DNA of 32,000 bases from an uncultured Clostridia bacterium (GCA_937907055.1 CALCTW010000036.1:2510-34509), one strand, 5' to 3'; shown: positions 3,312-12,513, counted from the first letter of the stretch. Numbers and translations are program-made. Notes: generated by a model not told the origin, from the sequence alone.

Positions 3312-4490
3312 TTGAAAATCAAAACCACTTATGAGACAGGCACGATGAATTTACTCGATGGCATAAAGGTTGTTGACTTTTCCAAATGGCTGCCCGGCCA
3401 GTTCTGCGGAATGCTGCTCGGTGACTACGGCGCTGACATCATAAAGCTCGAGGACCTCAGTGGCGACGCCACCCGCAAATTTTTCCCCGAACGCGAGCCC
3501 GGCATGAGCTACTGGAACCTCATGCTCAACCGCAACAAGCGGTCGCTGGCCTTTGACCTCAAAAAGGAAGAGGGCCGCGAGCTTCTCCTGAAGCTCCTCA
3601 AGGACGCCGATGTTTTTTTGGAGGGCTTCCGCCCCGGCTACCTCGCCCGCTACGGACTTGACTACGGGACTGTACACGCCGTCAACCCGCGGCTCATCTA
3701 TGTATCGGTCACCGGCTTCGGCCAGAGCTCCCACAAGCCCGCTCACGACCTCAATGTCATCGGTCTCGCCGGACTCAGCTTCCTCGACGACGAGGGAGAA
3801 GCCTGCGTCTCCGAAATCCAGATATCGGCCCTCGGCAGCGCCCTCAACGCCCTGAGCGCCATCTCCCTCGCTCTCTTTGCCCGGGAGCGGAGCGGCGAAG
3901 GACAGTTTATTGATGTCAATCTCTACGCCACCGCCCTCAGCCTCCAGACGACAGCCGTAAGCAGTATGTGGGGCTGCGAGGAAACCGGCACTCCGCGCTT
4001 CTCGCGCGTCACCCATTATTACAACAACTACCGCACGAAGGACGGCCGTTACCTGACTGTCGGCACTATTGAGCCCAAATTCTGGCAGCGTTTCTGCGAC
4101 CTCATCGGCTGCCCGGAGCTCAAGGGTGAGCAATTCCATTTTGCCCGCGAAAAAGAACTCATCGCCATCATCAAGGAAAAAATCGCCGCCAAAACCCTTG
4201 CCGAATGGCTCGCCCTTATCGGCAACGAGGAATTTTGCGTCACGCCGGTGCTCGGCCTGAAGGAAGCTCTTGCCTCGGAGCTGACAGCCCGTGAAGAAAT
4301 GCTCGAAACAAAGCCCTCGGATATCGGCGACATCCGCTACCTGAAGGGGCCGGTAAAATTTTCTGCCGCCCGCAGCGAAATCCGCCACCGGGCCCCGCGT
4401 CTCGGCGAGCATACCACTGAAATTCTCGGCGCGCTCGGCTATAAGCCGGAGGAAATCTCCGCCCTGAAGCAAAAAAATATAATTTTATGA
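3312..4490 (+). CDS. family III CoA-transferase (CaiB/BaiF type)
   Basis: LDGIKVVDFSKWLPGQFCGMLLGDYGADIIKLE...GFRPG...Y.S.TGFGQ are hallmark CaiB/BaiF motifs. TTG start at 3312 lies 8 nt after AAAGGTGG; an in-frame ATG at 3345 is the alternative start. Confidence 0.85.
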   Translation: MKIKTTYETGTMNLLDGIKVVDFSKWLPGQFCGMLLGDYGADIIKLEDLSGDATRKFFPEREPGMSYWNLMLNRNKRSLAFDLKKEEGRELLLKLLKDADVFLEGFRPGYLARYGLDYGTVHAVNPRLIYVSVTGFGQSSHKPAHDLNVIGLAGLSFLDDEGEACVSEIQISALGSALNALSAISLALFARERSGEGQFIDVNLYATALSLQTTAVSSMWGCEETGTPRFSRVTHYYNNYRTKDGRYLTVGTIEPKFWQRFCDLIGCPELKGEQFHFAREKELIAIIKEKIAAKTLAEWLALIGNEEFCVTPVLGLKEALASELTAREEMLETKPSDIGDIRYLKGPVKFSAARSEIRHRAPRLGEHTTEILGALGYKPEEISALKQKNIIL

Positions 4491-5448: not shown

Positions 5449-5643
5449 TCAGGCGTTTGCCGGGGCCTCGCCGGTGGAAGCGTTGTCCTCCTCTTCTTCT
5501 ATTTCCTCCGTTTCTTCGCCATGTCTTCTGGAGCTGGAAATAATCCTTCCTGCCGGTCTGCCGCTGCCCGAATCCTCATTGATGTCCTGATAGATTGCCA
5601 TACCGACTGCTCCTAATGCGACTCCTGCCAAAAATTTCCACAT
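5449..5643 (-). CDS. small membrane protein with acidic tail (64 aa)
   Basis: Strong RBS AGGAGGAA 6 nt before the ATG. N-terminal hydrophobic helix MWKFLAGVALGAVGMAIY, then an E/S-rich tail. Confidence 0.55.
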   Translation of the reverse strand: MWKFLAGVALGAVGMAIYQDINEDSGSGRPAGRIISSSRRHGEETEEIEEEEDNASTGEAPANA

Positions 5644-5692: not shown

Positions 5693-5728
5693 TAAAAAAA
5701 TCCTCACCGGCTTTGTTGACCTGTGAGG
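5693..5728 (-). terminator. terminator after kinase 1
   Basis: CCTCAC(5702-5707)/GTGAGG(5723-5728) hairpin, followed on the minus strand by TTTTTTT (A-run 5693-5700). Confidence 0.45.
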
Positions 5729-5746
5729 ACAATAAAATTTATTTTT

Positions 5747-6526
5747 TCAGTTGTCATCGTCAAAAAATATTTTCCCCAGCAGCAGTATCCCGCCCACCCC
5801 GATGCCGACCTTCTTCCAAAAATCCCAGGGCTCGTCTTCAAGGTCCTTTTTCAGCTCAGCAATGCTCCGGTAGCGGTCCTCGGGCGAAAAGGCCGTACAT
5901 TTTTCCAAAATAGGCTTGAGCCGGCCGTCGTAGTCCTCACCGAGCAGCTCCTGCAGGGTGCGGCCAAGGGCGTATATATCGCTGCGCGCGTCAGTTTCTC
6001 CGCAGCCGAACTGCTCCGGCGGCGCATAGCGGCGGGTAACAATTACTGTTGTATCGGTATCCTTCTCCCCGCTGTATTCACGCGAGGCGTCAAAATCGAG
6101 CAGATAGACATCGCCCTTGAAAATTTTGAGATTGTCGGGCTTTATATCGCGGTGAATTATGCCGAGCGCGTGAAGCCGGCTCAGCCCGTCACAAAGCCGC
6201 AGAAGAATTTTGAGCGCATTTTCCTCATCGAGCCTTTTCCCCTGTGCGACAATCTCTCCCAGCGTAACGCCGCTGATAAATTCCTCAATGACGACCGTAT
6301 CGCCCGCCTCGCTGTCCTCCGCGCAGTATTTGACCCTCGGCCAGAGGCTGTCAGGGTTCTGCTTGAGAAGCTTGTAGGGAAGACCCGTCAGCTTTACCTG
6401 CTTCCAGATTACATACTGCCCGGTGCTTATTTCCCGCGCAAGCCAGACCGTGCCGCGCCGGCTTTTTTTCAGACAATCGACCTTTTTGTACTGGTCGTTC
6501 AGATACTGCAAAACCCGTTTTTCCAT
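5747..6526 (-). CDS. Hanks-type Ser/Thr protein kinase, tail-anchored (259 aa)
   Basis: HRDIKPDN catalytic loop, VIWK lysine, DFD in place of DFG, YAPPEQ in place of APE. Short C-terminal hydrophobic segment VGIGVGGILLLGKIFF and no ectodomain. Confidence 0.85.
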   Translation of the reverse strand: MEKRVLQYLNDQYKKVDCLKKSRRGTVWLAREISTGQYVIWKQVKLTGLPYKLLKQNPDSLWPRVKYCAEDSEAGDTVVIEEFISGVTLGEIVAQGKRLDEENALKILLRLCDGLSRLHALGIIHRDIKPDNLKIFKGDVYLLDFDASREYSGEKDTDTTVIVTRRYAPPEQFGCGETDARSDIYALGRTLQELLGEDYDGRLKPILEKCTAFSPEDRYRSIAELKKDLEDEPWDFWKKVGIGVGGILLLGKIFFDDDN

Positions 6527-6552
6527 TTTCCCGCCTCCGAAAACTTCTCCCC

Positions 6553-6580
6553 TTGCATTGGAGAGGAAAATAATTATAAT
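6553..6580 (+). promoter_or_regulatory. sigma-70-like promoter for HTH gene 1
   Basis: TTGCAT (6553-6558), 16-nt spacer, TATAAT (6575-6580), in the 92-nt divergent intergenic region. Confidence 0.5.
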
Positions 6581-6618
6581 TTATTGTAATGGAGAAAATC
6601 TGCAAAGGAGGAGCCTTT

Positions 6619-7062
6619 ATGCCCAACGGCCCTGCTGAACAAAAGGACACCCAGATGCTTTTCAATGAAATAAAAAATGCCCGCTCGCGCGATGAATTCA
6701 AAAAGAGCATCACCGACAATCTGCCGGCCGGCAGCCTTACGGAGTATCTTGCCCGGCTGCTCGAAGAAAAGAAGCTCAAAAAGGCCGAGGTCGTTACCCG
6801 CTCGGAGCTCGACAAATCCTATGCCTATCATATTTTTTCCGGCGAAAAGCGGCCCTCCCGCCAAAAAGCCCTTGCCCTCGCGCTTTCCTTCGGACTGACT
6901 GTCAGGGAAGCCAATTACCTTTTATATTTTGCCGGCACCAACCAGCTCAATCCGCGCTCAACCTGGGACAAGGTAATCCTCTACGCGCTTGACAAGCACT
7001 GGAGTGTACACGATACGAATATCTTTCTCGATGAGGTCGGAGAAGCCGTTTTTCTGGAATGA
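6619..7062 (+). CDS. XRE-like HTH protein with C-terminal helical extension (147 aa)
   Basis: ATG at 6619 sits 6 nt after AAAGGAGG (the track ORF begins upstream at 6589). HTH segment LTEYLARLLEEKKLKKAEVVTRSELDKSYAYHIFSGEKRPSRQKALALALSFGL fits the Cro/C1 pattern. Confidence 0.75.
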   Translation: MPNGPAEQKDTQMLFNEIKNARSRDEFKKSITDNLPAGSLTEYLARLLEEKKLKKAEVVTRSELDKSYAYHIFSGEKRPSRQKALALALSFGLTVREANYLLYFAGTNQLNPRSTWDKVILYALDKHWSVHDTNIFLDEVGEAVFLE

Positions 7063-7123
7063 TGCTCCTCGTATTCCGCTGTCCCGTCATGTCTTCGGAG
7101 TCCTGCTTTTGCAGGGCTCTTTT

Positions 7124-8590
7124 TTATTTCCCCGCCTTCATGCCGGTTGCCCCTGCCGTATTTCTTCCGGACCGCTCATCAATCATCTTGACAGCGGCCT
7201 CCTCCTTTCTCTTTTTCTCCTCCATCTCTTTCACATAGCCGCGGTAGTATTCCTGAACCAGTGGCGACTTTGACTCCGCCCAGTTGCGGTAGTTGTTGTC
7301 CTGACGAAAATACAGCCGCTGCGCAACGGCTGACCCGCGACGCGGGAGTCCCTCCGGCCACTGCGGCTGAAAGTATACATTGGCCTCAGAGCCTGCCCGG
7401 TCATGTACCCGTCCTGACAGGTCAAACCTGACAGTCAGCGTTTCTCCGGGCATCAGGTCGTCAAAATAGCGCAGCTCCTTTTCATCATGCTCTGTGCTGC
7501 GGTATTCAATGCGGATAGCCGGCTTCACCCAGACCTGGTCCGTACAGTTGACAAAAAACGCCTCCACATACCAGCCCTCAGGAAAAATCACCGCATAATC
7601 ACCGGTCAAATCATTCTGATTCCGCCGTTCCCAGTGACGGTAAAGGTCAGAGGATATAAAAAAGGTGTTTTCCGAATCCTTCCCATTGACACGGCTCCCC
7701 ATAACCAACCGTGTTTCCGGACGACCCGCTATAGCATACTTCTTTTGTACCTGTGACAGCTTATCATTGGCGAACCTTCCCGTCATCCCGGCCGGAAGCT
7801 CCACTCTCCAGGCAGGCGGTGCGGCCAGCTGCCAAAGCACCAGCCCCGCGCTCAGAAGCAGCGCTGCCGCAAGCGGCCAAAGCCTCCGATATCTTCCGAA
7901 GCGGACAGCCCTGAGCAGCTCTGCCGTATTTTGGTAGCGGCTGTCCGGGTCAAACGAATGACATTTTTTCAGAACCGGCCTGAGCCAGCCGCGATAATCC
8001 GGCCCGAGCAGAGCCTCCACTGTCACTCCCAGCGCATAAATATCGCTGCGGCCATCGGTACGGCTGTAGCCGAACTGCTCCGGCGGAGCATATCCCCGCG
8101 TTCCCAGCAGGGTTGTATCCTCACAGCCGTCCCCCGGCATTTCCCTGGCCGCATCAAAATCCACCAGCCGCACCGTGCCGCCGTCCTCTAAAATAAGATT
8201 GGCCGGTTTTACATCGCGATGCACCACACCGAGGGCATGAAGAGCCCCAAGGCCCTCTCCCAGTGACTGCAAAAGGGCCACTGCTTCCTTTTCCGAAAAA
8301 AAGCTTTGTCCGTCCAGCCGCTCCTGCAGATTCGTCCCGCGGATATATTCCTCGGCAATAAAGGTTTCCCCGGCCGCCGTATCCTCAGCAAAATAAATAA
8401 TCCGCGGAAACAGCGACGGCAGGCGGTCCTTCATCAGCTTGCCGGGGATACCGGCATGCCGGATTGTCTTCATCACTACCAGCTCGCCTGTCACTCCGGC
8501 TGCCAGCCAGACCTCACTCCGTTCAGACCGCTTAAGCAGCCTGACCTTTTGGTATTGCTCTGTCAAAAATTCTATTGTCAGACTGTTCAT
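7124..8590 (-). CDS. Hanks-type Ser/Thr protein kinase with one TM helix and ~225-aa extracytoplasmic domain (488 aa)
   Basis: HRDVKPAN, VVMK, DFD, YAPPEQ. TM LWPLAAALLLSAGLVLWQLAA. C-terminal domain unassigned. Paralog of kinase 1. Confidence 0.85.
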   Translation of the reverse strand: MNSLTIEFLTEQYQKVRLLKRSERSEVWLAAGVTGELVVMKTIRHAGIPGKLMKDRLPSLFPRIIYFAEDTAAGETFIAEEYIRGTNLQERLDGQSFFSEKEAVALLQSLGEGLGALHALGVVHRDVKPANLILEDGGTVRLVDFDAAREMPGDGCEDTTLLGTRGYAPPEQFGYSRTDGRSDIYALGVTVEALLGPDYRGWLRPVLKKCHSFDPDSRYQNTAELLRAVRFGRYRRLWPLAAALLLSAGLVLWQLAAPPAWRVELPAGMTGRFANDKLSQVQKKYAIAGRPETRLVMGSRVNGKDSENTFFISSDLYRHWERRNQNDLTGDYAVIFPEGWYVEAFFVNCTDQVWVKPAIRIEYRSTEHDEKELRYFDDLMPGETLTVRFDLSGRVHDRAGSEANVYFQPQWPEGLPRRGSAVAQRLYFRQDNNYRNWAESKSPLVQEYYRGYVKEMEEKKRKEEAAVKMIDERSGRNTAGATGMKAGK

Positions 8591-8665
8591 AAAACCTCCT
8601 TGCGGATACCACTGAAAATGCGGTAGAATAATAAGGTACGAAAAAACTCAAAGGAGACCGTCACA

Positions 8666-9097
8666 ATGCCCGAAAACGACACCGACAAGCTCGAACACCA
8701 GATATCTGCCAGTACCGACCCGGCCAGACTATGCTCCGAACCGGACGGTACCATCCCGCAAATGACTGTCAGTCAATACCTCGACCAGCTCATCACCGAA
8801 CACGGCCTTTCCAAATCCGATATCGTAAACCGCTCCAACCTCGAGCGTTCCTACGCCTACCATATCCTTTCGGGCGACAAAGCCCTGCCCAGCCGTCCGA
8901 AAATTCTGGCCCTGGCTCTCGCCATGCAGCTTTCGCACAAGGAAGTCCAGCGGCTTCTCTACTACTCCAAGCACGAGCATCTCTATGTCAAAAACAAATG
9001 GGACGCCATAATCTGGTACGCCATCAGCAAAAAGCTCTCACCCGCTGACGCCAACATAATCCTCAGCGACCTCTCCATGCTCCCGCTTTTGGAATAA
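8666..9097 (+). CDS. XRE-like HTH protein, paralog of 6619-7062 (143 aa)
   Basis: SNLERSYAYHILSGDKALPSRPKILALALAMQL...WDAIIWYAISKKLS aligns by eye with HTH protein 1. RBS AAAGGAGA. Confidence 0.75.
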   Translation: MPENDTDKLEHQISASTDPARLCSEPDGTIPQMTVSQYLDQLITEHGLSKSDIVNRSNLERSYAYHILSGDKALPSRPKILALALAMQLSHKEVQRLLYYSKHEHLYVKNKWDAIIWYAISKKLSPADANIILSDLSMLPLLE

Positions 9098-9334: not shown

Positions 9335-9387
9335 GTTCTCAAGAGGTGATAACATTGAGCAACAAAGCCAAAATCCGCGAGGATGCC

Positions 9388-10152
9388 ATGAAACTCAACC
9401 CGATAGATGATGCCTTGTTCCAGAAGATGGCCGAGGATATTGCTTTTTGTGAGGAAATATTGCAAGTGTTTTTGGAAGATGACAAGCTGAAGGTGCTGGA
9501 CAATGTACCGCAAGTCTCTGTCAAAAATCTTCAGGGACGGTCCTGTATTCTGGATGTCAAATGTTCCCTGAGAAACGGCAGGATTGTCGGCGTAGAGGTA
9601 CAAAAGGCTGATGACGACGACCATCAGCGGCGGGTGCGCTACAATGGTGCTCTGCTGCCCACCAACATTACCGACCCCGGAAGCCGGTTTGAAAATGTTC
9701 CGGATATTATTATCATATTTATTTCCAGGTTTGATATTTTCAAATCGGGCAAAACATTGTATCATATAGACAGGATAATCCGTGAGACTGGCAAAAAAGC
9801 AGAAAACGGGTTTACCGAAATCTATGTCAATGCCGAGGTCAACGATGATTCAGATGTATCAAGACTGATGGAAATATTCACGCAGGATAACGCCTACGAT
9901 GACGACCGCTTCCCGGCCACCTCCGGCCGCAAGCGCAGATTCAAGACAACCGAGGAAGGAGCGAGTGAGATGTGTGAGATAATCGAGAAATACAAGGCCG
10001 AAGGAAGAGCCGAAGGAAAGGCCGAAGGAAAGGCCGAAGGAAGGATTCAGGCCGTCAAGGATATGATAAAAGCAGGTCTTACTACGCTGACCGATGTCAA
10101 AAAATCGGGACTGTATACAGAAGCGGAGCTGGCCGCCATCATTGCTCCTTGA
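9388..10152 (+). CDS. PD-(D/E)XK nuclease family protein (Rpn/PDDEXK_2 'putative transposase' type)
   Basis: N-terminal MKLNPIDDALFQKM resembles the family's xNDxxFKxxF start. Core is ILDVKCS...IVGVEVQK (D...ExQK). The tail has (AEGK/R)4 then a helical HTH-like end. Alternative in-frame starts are GTG 9346 and TTG 9355 (RBS AAGAGGTG). Confidence 0.7.
   Translation: MKLNPIDDALFQKMAEDIAFCEEILQVFLEDDKLKVLDNVPQVSVKNLQGRSCILDVKCSLRNGRIVGVEVQKADDDDHQRRVRYNGALLPTNITDPGSRFENVPDIIIIFISRFDIFKSGKTLYHIDRIIRETGKKAENGFTEIYVNAEVNDDSDVSRLMEIFTQDNAYDDDRFPATSGRKRRFKTTEEGASEMCEIIEKYKAEGRAEGKAEGKAEGRIQAVKDMIKAGLTTLTDVKKSGLYTEAELAAIIAP
9997..10044 (+). repeat. 4 x 12-bp in-frame tandem repeat GCCGAAGGAA(A/G)(G/A)
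   Basis: Directly visible: gccgaaggaaga gccgaaggaaag gccgaaggaaag gccgaaggaagg, encoding AEGR-AEGK-AEGK-AEGR. Confidence 0.9.
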
Positions 10153-10317: not shown

Positions 10318-12513
10318 TTGGGATTTTTTTTGCTTTTGACTGAAATAAATGACGCTATCGCCAAAGAACTGAAGCTCCGTGCAAAACAGGTCGAAGCGGC
10401 GGTCGGACTGCTCGATGACGGCAACACCATTCCGTTTATCGCCCGCTACCGCAAGGAGACCACCGACGAGCTCGACGAGGAGCAGCTGCGCGCCATAGAA
10501 GAGCGGCTCACCTATCTCCGCAATCTGGTAAAACGCCAGGAGGAAATCCTTGCAAAAATCGAGGAGCAGGGCAAGCTGACCGACGAGCTTCGCACCGCAA
10601 TCGAAAAAGCCCGGAAGCTCCAGGAGCTTGAGGACCTTTACCTCCCCTACAAGCAGAAGCGCCGTACCAAGGCGCAGGCGGCCCGGGAGAAAGGTCTGGC
10701 CCCGCTCGCCGCACTCATGCTGCTGCAAAATAAGACCGACGGCACCCCTGAGGAAGCCGCTGCCCCATTTATCGATGAAGAAAAAGGCATCGCCACCGCT
10801 GCCGACGCCCTGACAGGCGCGCAGGACATTCTGGCTGAGGAAATCACCGAGGACGCGGCTCTGCGCCAGCGGCTGCGTGAAAAGCTCTGGCAGACAGCCC
10901 TCCTTTCTACCGCTCTCGATGCCGAAGCTCCTGAGGCCAATACCTTTCTCATGTACGACAACGGCAGCGAGCCGGTACGCTCCCTGCCGTCACACCGCAT
11001 TCTGGCCATCAACCGCGGCGAGAAAAAGGAATGTCTCAAGGTAAAGCTGACAGCTGACTTTGACGGCATCTGTGAAGAAATATTCCGGAGCGTTTACCGC
11101 GGCCCCTCGATTTTTGCGGAGCTTATCCGTGCCGCTATCGACGATGGTGCAAAACGCCTGCTCTTCCCGGCATTGGAGCGCGAAATCCGCGCCCGCCTTA
11201 CGGAAGCCGCCGAAAAACAGGCCATTCATGTTTTCGGGGAAAATCTGCGGCAGCTTCTCCTGACGCCGCCGCTTGCCGGCCATACCGTAATGGGACTCGA
11301 CCCCGGCTACCGCACCGGCTGCAAGGTCGCAGTTGTCGACCCGACGGGCCGTATTCTCGCCCACGATGTTTTCTATATCACCAAAAGCGAGGGCGAAAAA
11401 AATCAGGCCGCCCAAAAGGCACTCGCCCTCATCAAAAAATACAAGGTTACGCTCATCTCTATCGGCAACGGTACTGCCTCCTATGAAACCGAGGTCTTTA
11501 CAGCCGACCTTATCCGCACAAACAGCCTTGCGGTCCGCTACATCATCACCAGCGAGGCCGGGGCTTCCGTCTACTCCGCCTCCCCACTGGCCCGCGAGGA
11601 GCTGCCTGATTACGATGTTACTGTACGCGGCGCAGTTTCCATTGCCCGGCGGGTTCAGGACCCGCTGGCCGAGCTGGTAAAAATCGACCCGAAAGCAATC
11701 GGCGTCGGCCAGTATCAGCACGATGTCGACCAGAAGGAGCTGACCGGCACACTCGACGCGACAGTCGAATCCGCTGTAAACCATGTCGGTGTCGACCTCA
11801 ATACCGCCTCACCCGCACTGCTGAAGCATATTTCCGGAATAAATGCCACCCTTGCCAAAAACATTGTCGCCTACCGCAATGACCATGGCCGCTTCCAAAG
11901 CCGCCGCGAGCTTCTTGAGGTACCGCGTCTTGGCAAGGCGGCCTTCACCCAGTGCGCAGGCTTTTTGCGCATCGCCGGTGGCACAATGCCGCTCGACAAC
12001 ACCCCCGTTCACCCGGAATCATATCCGCTCACCGAAAAGCTGCTTGCCCGTCTCGGCAGCTCGCTTGACGAGCTGGGAGACAAAGAAGCCCAGCCCGTGC
12101 TGCAGGCCCGTCTGAAGCTGGCTGACAGCGAAAAGCTCGCCCACGACCTCGACGCCGGACTGCCGACGGTACGCGATATTCTGGCAGCCCTCGCCCGTCC
12201 GGGACGCGACCCGCGCGAGGATGTTCCGCCGCCGGTTACCCGTCAGGCCGTTGTCAAGCTCTCCGACCTGAAGCCCGGCACACTGGTAAGAGGCACAGTC
12301 CGCAACATTACTGACTTCGGTGCCTTTGTCGATATCGGCATCAAGACTGCCGGTCTCATTCATATTTCCGAGCTTTCCAAACGCCGCGTCAAGCACCCGC
12401 TCGAGGTACTCGCCGTCGGAGAGGTAATTACCGTACTCATACTTTCTGTCGATGAAGCGCGCAACCGCATTGCGCTCAGTCTAAAACAAGTTCCCAAGGA
12501 GGCCGCCTCATGA
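10318..12513 (+). CDS. tex: Tex-like transcription accessory protein (S1 domain, YqgF/HhH domains)
   Basis: IAKELKLRAKQVEAAVGLLDDGNTIPFIARYRKETT is the canonical Tex N-terminus. C-terminal S1 domain GTLVRGTVRNITDFGAFVDIG...GLIHISEL. Start is uncertain: TTG 10318, 10330 or 10336, none with a good RBS. Confidence 0.9.
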   Translation: MGFFLLLTEINDAIAKELKLRAKQVEAAVGLLDDGNTIPFIARYRKETTDELDEEQLRAIEERLTYLRNLVKRQEEILAKIEEQGKLTDELRTAIEKARKLQELEDLYLPYKQKRRTKAQAAREKGLAPLAALMLLQNKTDGTPEEAAAPFIDEEKGIATAADALTGAQDILAEEITEDAALRQRLREKLWQTALLSTALDAEAPEANTFLMYDNGSEPVRSLPSHRILAINRGEKKECLKVKLTADFDGICEEIFRSVYRGPSIFAELIRAAIDDGAKRLLFPALEREIRARLTEAAEKQAIHVFGENLRQLLLTPPLAGHTVMGLDPGYRTGCKVAVVDPTGRILAHDVFYITKSEGEKNQAAQKALALIKKYKVTLISIGNGTASYETEVFTADLIRTNSLAVRYIITSEAGASVYSASPLAREELPDYDVTVRGAVSIARRVQDPLAELVKIDPKAIGVGQYQHDVDQKELTGTLDATVESAVNHVGVDLNTASPALLKHISGINATLAKNIVAYRNDHGRFQSRRELLEVPRLGKAAFTQCAGFLRIAGGTMPLDNTPVHPESYPLTEKLLARLGSSLDELGDKEAQPVLQARLKLADSEKLAHDLDAGLPTVRDILAALARPGRDPREDVPPPVTRQAVVKLSDLKPGTLVRGTVRNITDFGAFVDIGIKTAGLIHISELSKRRVKHPLEVLAVGEVITVLILSVDEARNRIALSLKQVPKEAAS

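Follow-up and report, generated by a model that had tools for sequence, protein, structure and literature searches.

The window analysed in the present study, a stretch of 32,000 nucleotides from an uncultured Clostridia bacterium (GCA_937907055.1 CALCTW010000036.1:2510-34509), contains two paralogous kinase/HTH modules side by side at positions 5747-9097. In each module, a Hanks-type Ser/Thr kinase without the Gly-rich loop is encoded divergently from a Cro/C1-type HTH protein of approximately 145 aa. We found that this pairing is conserved, is specific to the Gly-loop-less kinase clade, and occurs across Firmicutes, including Listeria. The gene pair is so far undescribed; searches of Pfam, NCBIfam, PADLOC, PDB and the literature gave nothing specific, in agreement with the original prediction that no named system has this architecture. 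On balance, we lean toward the explanation that each module works as a transmembrane signalling pair of one kinase and one dedicated regulator, in which the kinase would phosphorylate its cognate HTH protein.

The two modules and their kinases

The four open reading frames of the original prediction are all present (Table 1), and the proposed paralogy holds for both kinds of gene. The kinases K1 and K2 are about 49% identical over 226 aa (E 3e-71; 40-50% had been estimated by eye), and for HTH1 and HTH2 the identity is 37% over 141 aa (E 8e-31). Judged by sequence identity, the duplication of the module appears to be old, because a Schwartzia kinase is nearer to K2 (51%) than K1 is (48%). Where the HTH1 and K2 genes converge, a terminator-like hairpin separates the two modules; its 10-bp stem contains 6 GC pairs, and a T-run follows it. 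Next to the modules in the window is an Rpn/PDDEXK_2 nuclease gene of low GC content.

Table 1. Positions of the features of the two modules, counted from the first nucleotide of the window
Feature	Position	Strand	Basis
Kinase 1 (K1), 259 aa; domain of the Gly-loop-less clade, aa 1-232	5747..6526	-	ORF, Pkinase 1.6e-22, motifs
K1 C-terminal tail, short hydrophobic, aa ~240-255	in 5747..6526	-	hydrophobicity, borderline
Divergent intergenic region 1, 92 nt	6527..6618	.	sequence
Region 1, 12-nt direct repeat TTGCATTGGAGA / TTGTAATGGAGA	6553-6564 and 6584-6595		repeat search
Region 1, weak -35-like TTGCAT	6553-6558		by eye
Region 1, putative -10 TATAAT	6575-6580		by eye
Region 1, RBS AGGAGG, 7 nt before HTH1 ATG	6606-6611		
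HTH protein 1 (HTH1), 147 aa	6619..7062	+	ORF, sub-threshold HTH_31/HTH_3, AF2, Foldseek, family conservation
HTH1 codon of conserved Thr11	6649-6651		
Terminator-like hairpin	7097..7120	+	terminator scan
Kinase 2 (K2), 488 aa	7124..8590	-	ORF
K2 extracytoplasmic region, aa 258-488	7127..7819	-	orphan domain
K2 TM helix, aa 239-257	7820..7876	-	Kyte-Doolittle 19-residue window score 1.81
K2 catalytic domain, aa 1-232	7895..8590	-	Pkinase 3.9e-26, 49% identity to K1, motifs
Divergent intergenic region 2, 75 nt	8591..8665	.	sequence
Region 2, weak -35-like TTGCGG	8600-8605		by eye
Region 2, putative -10 TAGAAT	8624-8629		by eye
Region 2, RBS AGGAGA	8652-8657		
HTH protein 2 (HTH2), 143 aa, paralogue of HTH1	8666..9097	+	ORF, identity to HTH1, family profile
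HTH2 codon of conserved Thr6	8681-8683		

Both kinases match Pfam Pkinase (PF00069) well above the cut-off of 31.7 (80.6 bits for K1 and 92.4 bits for K2), and the match is limited to profile positions ~70-191, the C-lobe portion of the profile. The motifs quoted in the original prediction are present, namely VxxK, HRD[IV]KPxN (HRDIKPDN in K1 and HRDVKPAN in K2), DFD and APPEQ, and the beta3 Lys is found in both proteins by alignment. The GxGxxG of subdomain I is absent from the alignment of K1, K2 and all paired clade kinases, whereas the canonical kinases of the same metagenome scan do carry it. Among 43 clade members, conservation is complete or at least 90% for the HRD Asp, the catalytic-loop Asn, the DFx Asp and the APE Glu, and likewise for the DT and GT of the activation loop; the DFx motif itself varies (DFD, DFG, DFN and DYG). 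This conservation of catalytic residues argues for an active enzyme, and the clade kinases would be expected to transfer phosphate from ATP to Ser/Thr. However, activity is not guaranteed, because the clade has no Gly-rich loop and the related DYD family is partly classed as pseudokinases (PMC12599244).

The input side of the pairs is modular, and the kinase domain and the HTH protein on the output side are conserved. The idea of a cassette duplicated with different inputs is borne out in the window: K2 has a clear TM helix with 231 residues beyond it (~225 had been claimed), and K1 has no ectodomain. As for the proposed tail anchor of K1 without a sensor domain, the absence of an ectodomain stands, but the tail is only ~16 aa long, contains a Lys and is a borderline TM helix. 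The extracytoplasmic region of K2 is probably a beta-rich domain followed by a Lys/Glu-rich helix. It had no match in Pfam, no homologue in the indexed search and no similarity to the ectodomains of the closest orthologues, and its single-sequence AF2 model was unusable (pLDDT 35.5). Membrane anchoring is the rule among clade kinases. Fused ectodomains among the pairs include CBM_X2 with Cthe_2159 and BspA-type LRR; kinases with three TM helices have a gene for a DUF5067/DUF4352 extracellular protein directly downstream (10 loci plus Listeria), and soluble clade kinases are preceded by a zinc-ribbon/TM/ectodomain protein.

The HTH proteins and the intergenic regions

In HTH1, a two-helix N-terminal extension starting at Thr11 precedes the Cro/C1 core (aa ~40-91), which is followed by a C-terminal extension of three helices (aa 95-139). 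The Cro/C1 HTH with a helical extension had been predicted, and the AF2 model of HTH1 (pLDDT 88 overall and >95 over aa 40-140) reproduces it, with helices at 95-104, 115-126 and 130-139 after the core. Foldseek matched the model, within the HTH core only, to DdrO-NTD and C.AhdI (probability 1.0; rmsd 1.9 A over 59-61 residues); as modelled, the core is thus a genuine five-helix Cro/C1 fold. Sequence-specific DNA binding is predicted. The Pfam matches are below threshold for both HTH1 (HTH_31 23.6, cut-off 27; HTH_3 20.9, cut-off 23) and HTH2 (HTH_31 20.7, cut-off 27). No FHA domain was matched in Pfam, and the AF2 model is entirely helical. The family is large, with 1,266 clusters at E<=1e-10, and HTH2 ranks second among the matches to the family profile. 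The family lacks a dedicated Pfam entry and bears only generic names.

The N-terminal tail was misread in the original prediction as a low-complexity Ser/Thr segment. It is predicted to form two helices (11-19 and 24-32), the first of which begins at one near-invariant Thr, Thr11 in HTH1 and Thr6 in HTH2. This Thr is kept in 126/131 members of the HTH family and in all 53 paired HTH proteins, within the motif K-[S/D/T]-T-x-x-L-L, which resembles the [K/S/R]-D-T-x-h-[L/M]-G of the kinase activation loop. A purely structural role is possible, since in the HTH1 model the residue occupies the N-cap position of helix 1.

The two divergent gene pairs had been described as sharing gaps of 92 and 75 nt with -35/-10 boxes. 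The gap sizes are correct and good -10 sequences can be seen by eye, but the -35-like sequences match at only three of six positions, and a promoter scan of both intergenic regions called no site at its thresholds. Because of the latter result, we treat the promoter and operator roles of region 1 as putative. Region 1 contains the 12-nt direct repeat; no repeat was found in region 2, nor was an operator motif common to the HTH family.

Conservation of the kinase-HTH pairing

The original prediction regarded the kinase and the HTH protein as a self-contained cassette, and the gene-neighbourhood test that it put forward lends this idea strong support, with an association that holds in both directions. 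Starting from the HTH gene, a clade kinase was found within 3.5 kb in 40 of 49 genome loci from Clostridia, Negativicutes, Erysipelotrichaceae and Coriobacteriaceae, and within 150 nt in 29 of them, with a median gap of 81 nt. Starting from the kinase in the metagenome scan, an HTH gene lay within 80 nt of 10/11 assessable clade kinases, compared with 0/54 canonical Gly-loop Hanks kinases (Fisher p=6e-11). Among the nine exceptions, three are cut by contig edges (L016, L026 and L028, the last of which keeps a truncated kinase ectodomain), and in three the HTH gene is immediately followed by two genes for PP2C Ser/Thr phosphatases. The HTH genes of L017, L018 and L020 stand alone, as does one clade-like kinase gene (L063). 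The distances among kinases and among HTH proteins co-vary (Mantel r=0.78, reached in 0/2000 permutations), an effect that is inseparable from the shared species phylogeny. Of 53 pairs, 35 are divergent over a short shared control region and 14 take the form of a same-strand operon.

Listeria monocytogenes Lmo0618, a putative protein kinase, and its divergent neighbour form the same kind of pair. The assignment of the locus to lmo0618 and of the neighbour to lmo0619 is putative, made by length, annotation and gene order rather than by locus tag; the published length of Lmo0618, 380 aa, agrees with that of the Listeria clade kinase (PMC4379056). This kinase has no Gly loop, has three TM helices and contains HRDIKPSN, DFD, DT...GTIGYAAPEQ and PGFR. 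The divergent HTH partner (151-154 aa) belongs to the HTH family and had no Pfam match at all. The pair shares ~33-34% identity with K1/K2 and HTH1. The Listeria kinase is of the three-TM type with a separate extracellular partner, a DUF5067 lipoprotein encoded downstream; in this it differs from K2, whose ectodomain is fused, and from K1, which lacks one. We found no study of the kinase-HTH link or of the HTH protein of Listeria in the searchable literature; deletion of lmo0618 reduces intracellular replication (PMC3091722).

Possible mechanism, alternatives and known systems

In the favored explanation, the signal would reach a membrane-associated Gly-loop-less kinase by way of a variable module that is extracytoplasmic or lies in the membrane. 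For K2, the input would be the fused 231-aa ectodomain; as K1 has none, its input may be membrane-borne, cytoplasmic or received via a partner. The kinase would then phosphorylate the cognate XRE-type HTH protein, most likely at the near-invariant N-terminal Thr. Phosphorylation may alter DNA binding or oligomerisation, and thereby transcription from the shared divergent promoter region and probably from other targets, and PP2C phosphatases would reset the switch. In favor of this explanation are the two-way association of the genes, the co-varying distances, the conserved catalytic residues, the conserved HTH Thr with its resemblance to the activation loop, the modular inputs, the Cro/C1 core and the predominance of divergent pairs. 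Against it count the missing Gly-rich loop, the N-cap position of the Thr, the negative result for a family-wide operator motif, the phylogenetic component of the Mantel correlation and the few HTH and kinase genes that stand alone.

An alternative possibility is that the HTH protein regulates transcription of the kinase gene only, as a local repressor or activator at the divergent promoter, while the kinase acts on other substrates; the pair would then be conserved for regulation and not for phosphate transfer. Local regulators typically show such a divergent layout over a shared control region (75-92 nt here), Hanks kinases are pleiotropic as a rule (review PMC4601284), and the conserved Thr occupies an N-cap position. 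However, N-caps normally accept S/T/D/N, yet Thr is fixed in nearly the whole family, and it is rare for a simple local regulator to diverge together with a single enzyme clade and to remain specific to it in different phyla. Same-strand operon forms keep the pairing as well. Furthermore, PP2C genes adjoin the HTH gene where the kinase is absent, which ties the HTH protein to Ser/Thr phosphorylation rather than to regulation of the kinase gene. We consider this alternative doubtful. It is still less probable that the kinase is a pseudokinase or scaffold that holds the HTH protein at the membrane and releases it on a signal, in an anti-sigma-like manner, without phosphate transfer. A pure scaffold would not be expected to keep the catalytic Asp and Asn, the Mg-binding Asp and the activation-loop Thr residues with little or no variation, as the clade does, and the PP2C genes beside kinase-less HTH genes imply real phosphorylation. 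A scaffold would fit the lack of a Gly-rich loop in every clade member, the general membrane anchoring of the clade and the partial classification of similar membrane-associated Firmicutes kinases as pseudokinases (PMC12599244). The atypical C. difficile kinase CD2148, which shows no autophosphorylation (PMC9674922), also points in this direction, but CD2148 lacks exactly these catalytic and activation-loop residues and is thus a different case.

The original prediction also raised a toxin-antitoxin-like or defence-like pair following HipA/HipB logic. In a toxin-antitoxin or anti-phage pair of this kind, the Hanks kinase would act as the toxin that arrests growth, and the HTH protein as its antitoxin and autorepressor. 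HipBA likewise pairs a Ser/Thr kinase with an XRE-type HTH protein, the kinase domains match the PADLOC kinase models PD-T4-6, mad6 and Stk2 at 1e-18 to 1e-31, and the nuclease gene lies next door. However, HipA differs in its kinase fold, resides in the cytoplasm and is transcribed together with hipB, downstream of it, and the window pairs share none of these traits; no HipA_N or HipA_C was among the Pfam matches, the domain being Pkinase, and most pairs, including both in the window, are divergent rather than co-transcribed. The PADLOC kinase matches are confined to the generic C-lobe, and the NCBIfam scores are far under every defence-family cut-off (e.g., 68 vs 460 for MAD6; PglW and Stk-type likewise). 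In PADLOC-DB 2.0, the HTH proteins had matches only at E>0.003. The clade kinases are membrane proteins, and they carry extracellular modules (carbohydrate-binding, LRR or others) or have extracellular partners. Defence matches were scattered and single-locus, with none recurrent among 123 flanking genes, and phage and plasmid collections gave only Listeria sequences (four 'phage' and three 'plasmid' records, of which one or more are as large as a chromosome) and one 6-kb fecal contig. A toxin-antitoxin or defence role for the pair is therefore unlikely, and we see hardly any room for the HipBA-like scheme.

The favored signalling pair resembles two-component systems in its adjacent 1:1 sensor kinase and DNA-binding output, paralogous pairs in one genome, conserved transmitter/receiver interface and swappable modular sensor domains. 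The chemistry and folds are wholly different: the presumed acceptor is Thr, not Asp, and no HisKA, HATPase_c or REC domain was found by Pfam in any of the four window proteins. More tentatively, and perhaps not quite as an even prospect, the pairs may represent a widespread Firmicutes system that does the two-component job with different parts, namely a Gly-loop-less kinase, a conserved N-terminal Thr of a dedicated XRE regulator, plug-in sensors and PP2C reset. If so, the extracellular sensors would either be fused to the kinase or be encoded as partner proteins of their own, and the system would have escaped notice because the HTH protein lacks its own Pfam family and the kinases of the clade are frequently written off as pseudokinases.

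Hanks-type membrane or sensor kinases encoded beside the transcription factor that they phosphorylate are known from mycobacteria and streptomycetes (PknH-EmbR, PknK-VirS and AfsK-AfsR). The regulators are of the OmpR/SARP type with an FHA phospho-recognition domain, or of the AraC type, and the kinases have canonical Gly loops; such pairs are lineage-specific cases and not one conserved two-gene family. In contrast, the regulator in the window is a ~140-aa XRE HTH protein without FHA. In the clostridial RsgI-SigI systems, paralogous membrane sensors with swapped extracellular parts (carbohydrate-binding and other) are each wired to their own transcription factor, but RsgI is an anti-sigma factor rather than a kinase, and the output is a sigma factor rather than a repressor-like HTH protein.

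The DYD bacterial Ser/Thr (pseudo)kinases are membrane-associated proteins of Firmicutes and Actinobacteria with divergent ATP-binding elements, and the papers on them report neither an HTH partner nor a neighbourhood analysis (PMC12599244; bioRxiv 10.1101/2025.01.12.632604). They have a D-Y-D motif, a beta3 Arg/Lys and no alphaC Glu, and the basic beta3 residue is the proposed partner of the second Asp in D-[Y/F]-D (PMC12599244). Compared with this description, K1 and K2 have DFD and a beta3 Lys.

Pairing of the kinase and HTH genes

The original prediction was that the kinases K1 and K2 and their divergent Cro/C1-type HTH partners, HTH1 and HTH2, form self-contained cassettes. A conserved pairing was found both from the HTH side and from the kinase side, and the kinase and HTH genes very probably constitute one functional unit. 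The scan from the HTH side, which used one genome per species, gave 49 loci in Clostridia, Negativicutes, Erysipelotrichaceae and Coriobacteriaceae. At 40 of them, a kinase domain of the K1/K2 group (Hanks-type Ser/Thr kinases without a Gly-rich loop, hereafter clade kinases) lies within 3.5 kb of the HTH gene; the median gap is 81 nt, and the gap is 150 nt or less at 29 loci. The other nine HTH loci lack a clade kinase domain within this distance. Three of these are cut by contig ends, and one of the three (L028) keeps the C-terminus of a kinase ectodomain. Three others (L017, L018 and L020) have neither a kinase nor PP2C genes, and the remaining three (L023, L025 and L032) have two tandem genes of PP2C-type Ser/Thr phosphatases just after the HTH gene, in convergent orientation, without an adjacent clade kinase (see the table). 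In L023, a canonical zinc-ribbon Hanks kinase is located 3.4 kb away.

From the kinase side, a metagenome scan with the kinase alignment gave 80 loci, in which clade members and ordinary Hanks kinases were mixed. The Gly loop was classed on the full N-lobe, with the leftovers checked by hand; the HMM envelopes of canonical kinases begin after the loop. Thirteen kinases were matched by the clade profile from the N-lobe and lacked the Gly loop: ten are 80 nt or less from an HTH gene, two lie at a contig edge, and L063 is without an HTH gene. An HTH neighbour was found for 0 of 54 canonical Gly-loop kinases, whereas it was found for 10 of 11 assessable clade kinases (Fisher's exact test, p=6e-11). 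On the kinase side, only L063 clearly departs from the pairing. Its clade-like, Gly-loop-less kinase (403 aa) is encoded in a low-GC genome, where it seems to form an operon with mnmG-like and thymidine-kinase-like genes upstream of it.

The distances between the kinases and between the HTH proteins of 53 pairs were correlated (Mantel r=0.78, reached in 0 of 2000 permutations), as expected from co-evolving partners and also from a common species history. The two genes of these 53 pairs are divergent in 35 cases, on the same strand in 14 (HTH first in 10, kinase first in 4) and convergent in 4. Neighbouring kinase and regulator genes are already known from PknH-EmbR, PknK-VirS and AfsK-AfsR. 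The present pairs resemble these in gene adjacency, but the phylum-wide 1:1 pairing of two families is a property of this clade. Such a conserved pairing of a Hanks-kinase clade with an XRE-type HTH family, with modular sensors, was undescribed in the resources queried.

The HTH family and the kinase clade

A word-index homologue search with HTH1 gave only three relatives, and the family became visible only when 1.84 billion representatives were searched exhaustively with a profile. It includes 3,001 proteins at E<=1e-3, of which 1,266 reach E<=1e-10; nearly all are of about 140 aa and matched end to end. The family is unannotated (more than 1,200 clusters at 50% identity), its members being named 'XRE/helix-turn-helix' or not at all in the sources. 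Matches of HTH1 and HTH2 to HTH_31 and HTH_3 were below the curated Pfam cut-offs, the Listeria member had no Pfam match, and a PDB sequence search with the family found generic HTH cores only. The AF2 model of HTH1 (54 homologues, pLDDT 88) has nine helices, with two at the N-terminus (11-19 and 24-32), the HTH core at 40-91 and three at the C-terminus (95-139). Thus, the N-terminus, previously taken for a low-complexity tail, is predicted to form two helices that start at a single conserved Thr. This residue (Thr11 in HTH1 numbering) is kept in 126 of 131 family members, in the context K-[S/T/D]-T-[D/E]-E-L. Foldseek searches of PDB and BFVD with the model matched only the Cro/C1 core (rmsd about 1.9 A over about 60 residues), as in the N-terminal domains of DdrO and CapH and in C.AhdI, and no solved or viral structure in these databases spans the whole protein (TMq <=0.46).

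In five longer proteins of 287-318 aa (P0047, P0049, P0059, P0069 and P0102), the profile matches twice over its full length. They consist of two HTH units fused in tandem and hint at a dimer as the functional unit. An inverted repeat, TTGTGC-N9-13-GCACAA, was observed upstream of the HTH gene, between its -10 box and RBS, at L013, L015, L021, L036 and L045-L047. These are related loci of the 3-TM type, for which the repeat may serve as an operator or a 5'-UTR hairpin. It was not enriched family-wide (3 of 52 regions vs 0.6 +/- 0.8 in shuffles, maximum 3).

In the alignment of the partner kinases, the Gly-rich loop is absent from all members, and all have the HRD Asp, the DFx Asp, the 'DT' of the activation loop, the 'GT' Thr and the PE Glu. 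The catalytic-loop Asn is conserved in at least 90%, and the residue after DF is variable (D, G, N, S or E). Judged by these residues, the clade kinases would be atypical and catalytically competent, a better fit than dead scaffolds. According to a review of 2025 (PMC12599244), Firmicutes and Actinobacteria have a membrane-associated 'DYD' family, for which the second Asp of D-Y-D was proposed to offset the missing alphaC Glu. K1 and K2, which have DFD, may be members or near neighbours of this family. Neither the review nor its underlying atlas includes an HTH partner or a gene-neighbourhood analysis. C. difficile CD2148 was considered as a characterised relative and rejected; it is without the catalytic Asp, Asn, GT and SPE motifs, which the clade retains.

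Input modules, proposed mechanism and alternatives

The kinase domain and the HTH protein are conserved, whereas the part downstream of the kinase domain varies. The commonest type has a 3-TM 'PGFR' module without an ectodomain. Others have a single TM helix with a CBM_X2 and Cthe_2159 carbohydrate-binding ectodomain (L042), a BspA-type LRR ectodomain (L034) or orphan ectodomains (K2, L006, L012, L022 and L031), a tail anchor only (K1 and L005), or no membrane segment. The hydrophobic tail of K1 is a short one and a borderline case of a TM helix. A DUF5067/DUF4352 gene is directly downstream of 3-TM kinases at 10 loci and in Listeria, and such a gene was found beside the kinase at L007, L013, L014, L021, L024, L030, L035, L045-L047, L049, L054 and L055. 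Its product, a lipoprotein or single-pass membrane protein with an extracellular beta-sandwich domain and, in some cases, an N-terminal zinc ribbon, is likely the third component of the 3-TM sub-type. In five cases, the kinase is soluble and its operon has the order HTH-X-kinase; the protein X combines a zinc ribbon, a TM helix and an LRR_5 or DUF6273 ectodomain. Zinc-ribbon motifs (CPFC...FCLYCM) were observed on the cytoplasmic side of the membrane partners encoded between the HTH and kinase genes at L027, L029, L037, L039 and L040, and at the kinase N-terminus in L069 and L071; the ribbon may be an element that docks the sensor protein to the kinase.

The extracellular parts are unrelated even in the orthologues nearest to K1 and K2, which are from Selenomonas, Schwartzia and Acidaminococcales. 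For the K2 ectodomain, there was no Pfam match, no homologue in the indexed search and no similarity to the ectodomains of these orthologues, and its single-sequence AF2 model (pLDDT 35.5) is meaningless. Together, the modules and partners found mean that most architectures supply an extracellular module, in cis or from an adjoining gene, which suits a transmembrane signalling device and not a toxin. The variety of ectodomains (carbohydrate-binding, LRR and DUF5067) suggests the sensing of environmental or host polymers.

As a whole, the mechanism that we somewhat favour is a dedicated pair of sensor kinase and regulator. The kinase would perceive the signal through its variable module or a partner and phosphorylate the cognate HTH protein, which would then alter transcription, at the shared control region and probably at other sites too; the PP2C phosphatases would reverse the phosphorylation. 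The acceptor would most likely be the near-invariant N-terminal Thr (Thr11 in HTH1, Thr6 in HTH2), which is fixed as Thr though its N-cap position would allow S, D or N. The motif around it, K-[S/D/T]-T-x-x-L-L, is similar to the activation-loop site of the kinases, [K/S/R]-D-T-x-h-[L/M]-G. Mycobacterial Hanks kinases prefer a large hydrophobic residue at +3.

That the HTH protein is a purely local transcription factor seems unlikely, because both the fixed Thr and the presence of PP2C genes in place of the kinase would be left unexplained. Less likely again is a pseudokinase that only tethers its partner: the missing Gly loop fits this role, but the invariant catalytic residues do not. The original prediction also named a HipBA-like toxin-antitoxin or defence pair. 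This is very improbable, since it is contradicted by the fold, the orientation of the genes and the membrane topology with extracellular modules; furthermore, no recurrent defence neighbours were found, defence-family scores were below threshold, and the similarity found with PADLOC and NCBIfam was only that of generic kinase domains.

Hanks-type kinases of bacteria are commonly viewed as pleiotropic, with few substrates that are hard to find. A hard-wired 1:1 partner, as in the sensor-kinase/regulator pair, would provide a kinase-substrate pair that can be tested cleanly, together with a specificity code, for which 53 co-varying pairs are already available. If true, it would assign a function to two large gene sets of gut, rumen and food-borne Firmicutes, namely the unannotated HTH family and kinases now suspected to be pseudokinases.

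In a protein-level search of phage and plasmid collections, the HTH was found essentially in Listeria records only, at least one of which is chromosome-sized (2.9 Mb). In L. innocua and L. monocytogenes, the genes of the family member (151-154 aa, 'hypothetical protein') and of a 3-TM Ser/Thr kinase are transcribed divergently, and a DUF5067 lipoprotein gene is downstream of the kinase gene. The L. monocytogenes kinase has 380 aa, as published for Lmo0618 (PMC4379056), with which we identify it by length, annotation and gene order. By gene order, the HTH gene would be lmo0619 and the DUF5067 gene is probably lmo0617. The lmo0618 deletion is among mutants with reduced intracellular replication (PMC3091722); the literature searched did not mention the HTH gene beside it. 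The Listeria orthologue thus offers a route to direct testing of the hypothesis in a genetic model organism.

The duplicated module and its surroundings

Coordinates of features in the window and at other loci
Feature	Locus	Position	Strand	Basis or remark
K1	window	5747-6526	-	ORF, 259 aa
HTH1	window	6619-7062	+	ORF, 147 aa
Terminator-like hairpin between convergent HTH1 and K2 ends	window	7097-7120		sequence scan
K2	window	7124-8590	-	ORF, 488 aa
HTH2	window	8666-9097	+	ORF, 143 aa
CCTCC-TTG arrangement	window	6536-6558		
CCTCC-TTG arrangement	window	8596-8605		
Rpn-family / PDDEXK_2 gene	window	9346-10152	+	
Small ORF	window	5449-5643	-	64 aa
Long antisense ORF	window	3351-4472	-	
Long antisense ORF	window	5723-6589	+	
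Long antisense ORF	window	10990-11784	-	
PP2C phosphatase pair	L023	6476-8467		Huintestinicola / Oscillospiraceae genomes
PP2C phosphatase pair	L025	6495-8258		Huintestinicola / Oscillospiraceae genomes
PP2C phosphatase pair	L032	6473-8222		Huintestinicola / Oscillospiraceae genomes
Clade-like kinase	L063	3938-5149		

All four ORFs were found where they had been predicted, and the intergenic gaps of 92 and 75 nt agree. K1 and K2 are indeed paralogues (49% identity over 226 residues, E 3e-71), as are HTH1 and HTH2 (37% over 141 residues, E 8e-31). The kinase motifs were also read correctly: GxGxxG is absent, and VxxK, HRD[IV]KPxN, DFD and APPEQ are present. K1 and K2 both score above the Pfam Pkinase threshold, but their match is confined to the C-lobe part of the profile. 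K2 is nearer to a Schwartzia kinase (51%) than to K1 (48%), and thus the duplication is old. The nearest kinase and HTH relatives (Selenomonas, Schwartzia and Acidaminococcales) suggest that the window comes from a member of the Negativicutes. Tandem modules with different inputs, as in the window, are rare among the sampled loci; two kinases were found only in L012 and two HTH genes only in L049.

An AGGAGG 7 nt upstream favours ATG 6619 as the start of HTH1 over the longer ORF from 6589. As for the -35/-10 boxes proposed in both intergenic regions, a good -10 can be seen by eye in each, although the -35 is poor and the promoter scan calls none. In many divergent intergenic regions, including both in the window, the kinase RBS, read as its reverse complement, is immediately followed by the TTG of the -35-like element in the presumed HTH promoter (CCTCC-TTG); thus, the control regions of the two divergent units must overlap. 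The 12-nt direct repeat of intergenic region 1, with two copies only, may be due to chance.

Directly after HTH2 is a gene for an Rpn-family / PDDEXK_2 'recombination-promoting nuclease / putative transposase', whose product has an AEGK/AEGR repeat at its C-terminus (KAEGRAEGKAEGKAEGR). The G+C content of this stretch is 0.45-0.47 vs 0.52-0.60 around it. The gene was not recurrent beside the pair at other loci, and it is probably mobile or recently acquired. The 64-aa ORF, on the same strand as K1 and 103 nt downstream of it, codes for a product that is hydrophobic in its N-terminal segment (MWKFLAGVALGAVGMAI) and strongly acidic in its tail, with no Pfam match; the ORF could encode a small membrane partner co-transcribed with K1, or not be a gene. 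The long ORFs antisense to real genes (CoA-transferase, K1 and Tex), of which the table lists three among others, are artefacts of composition and not genes.
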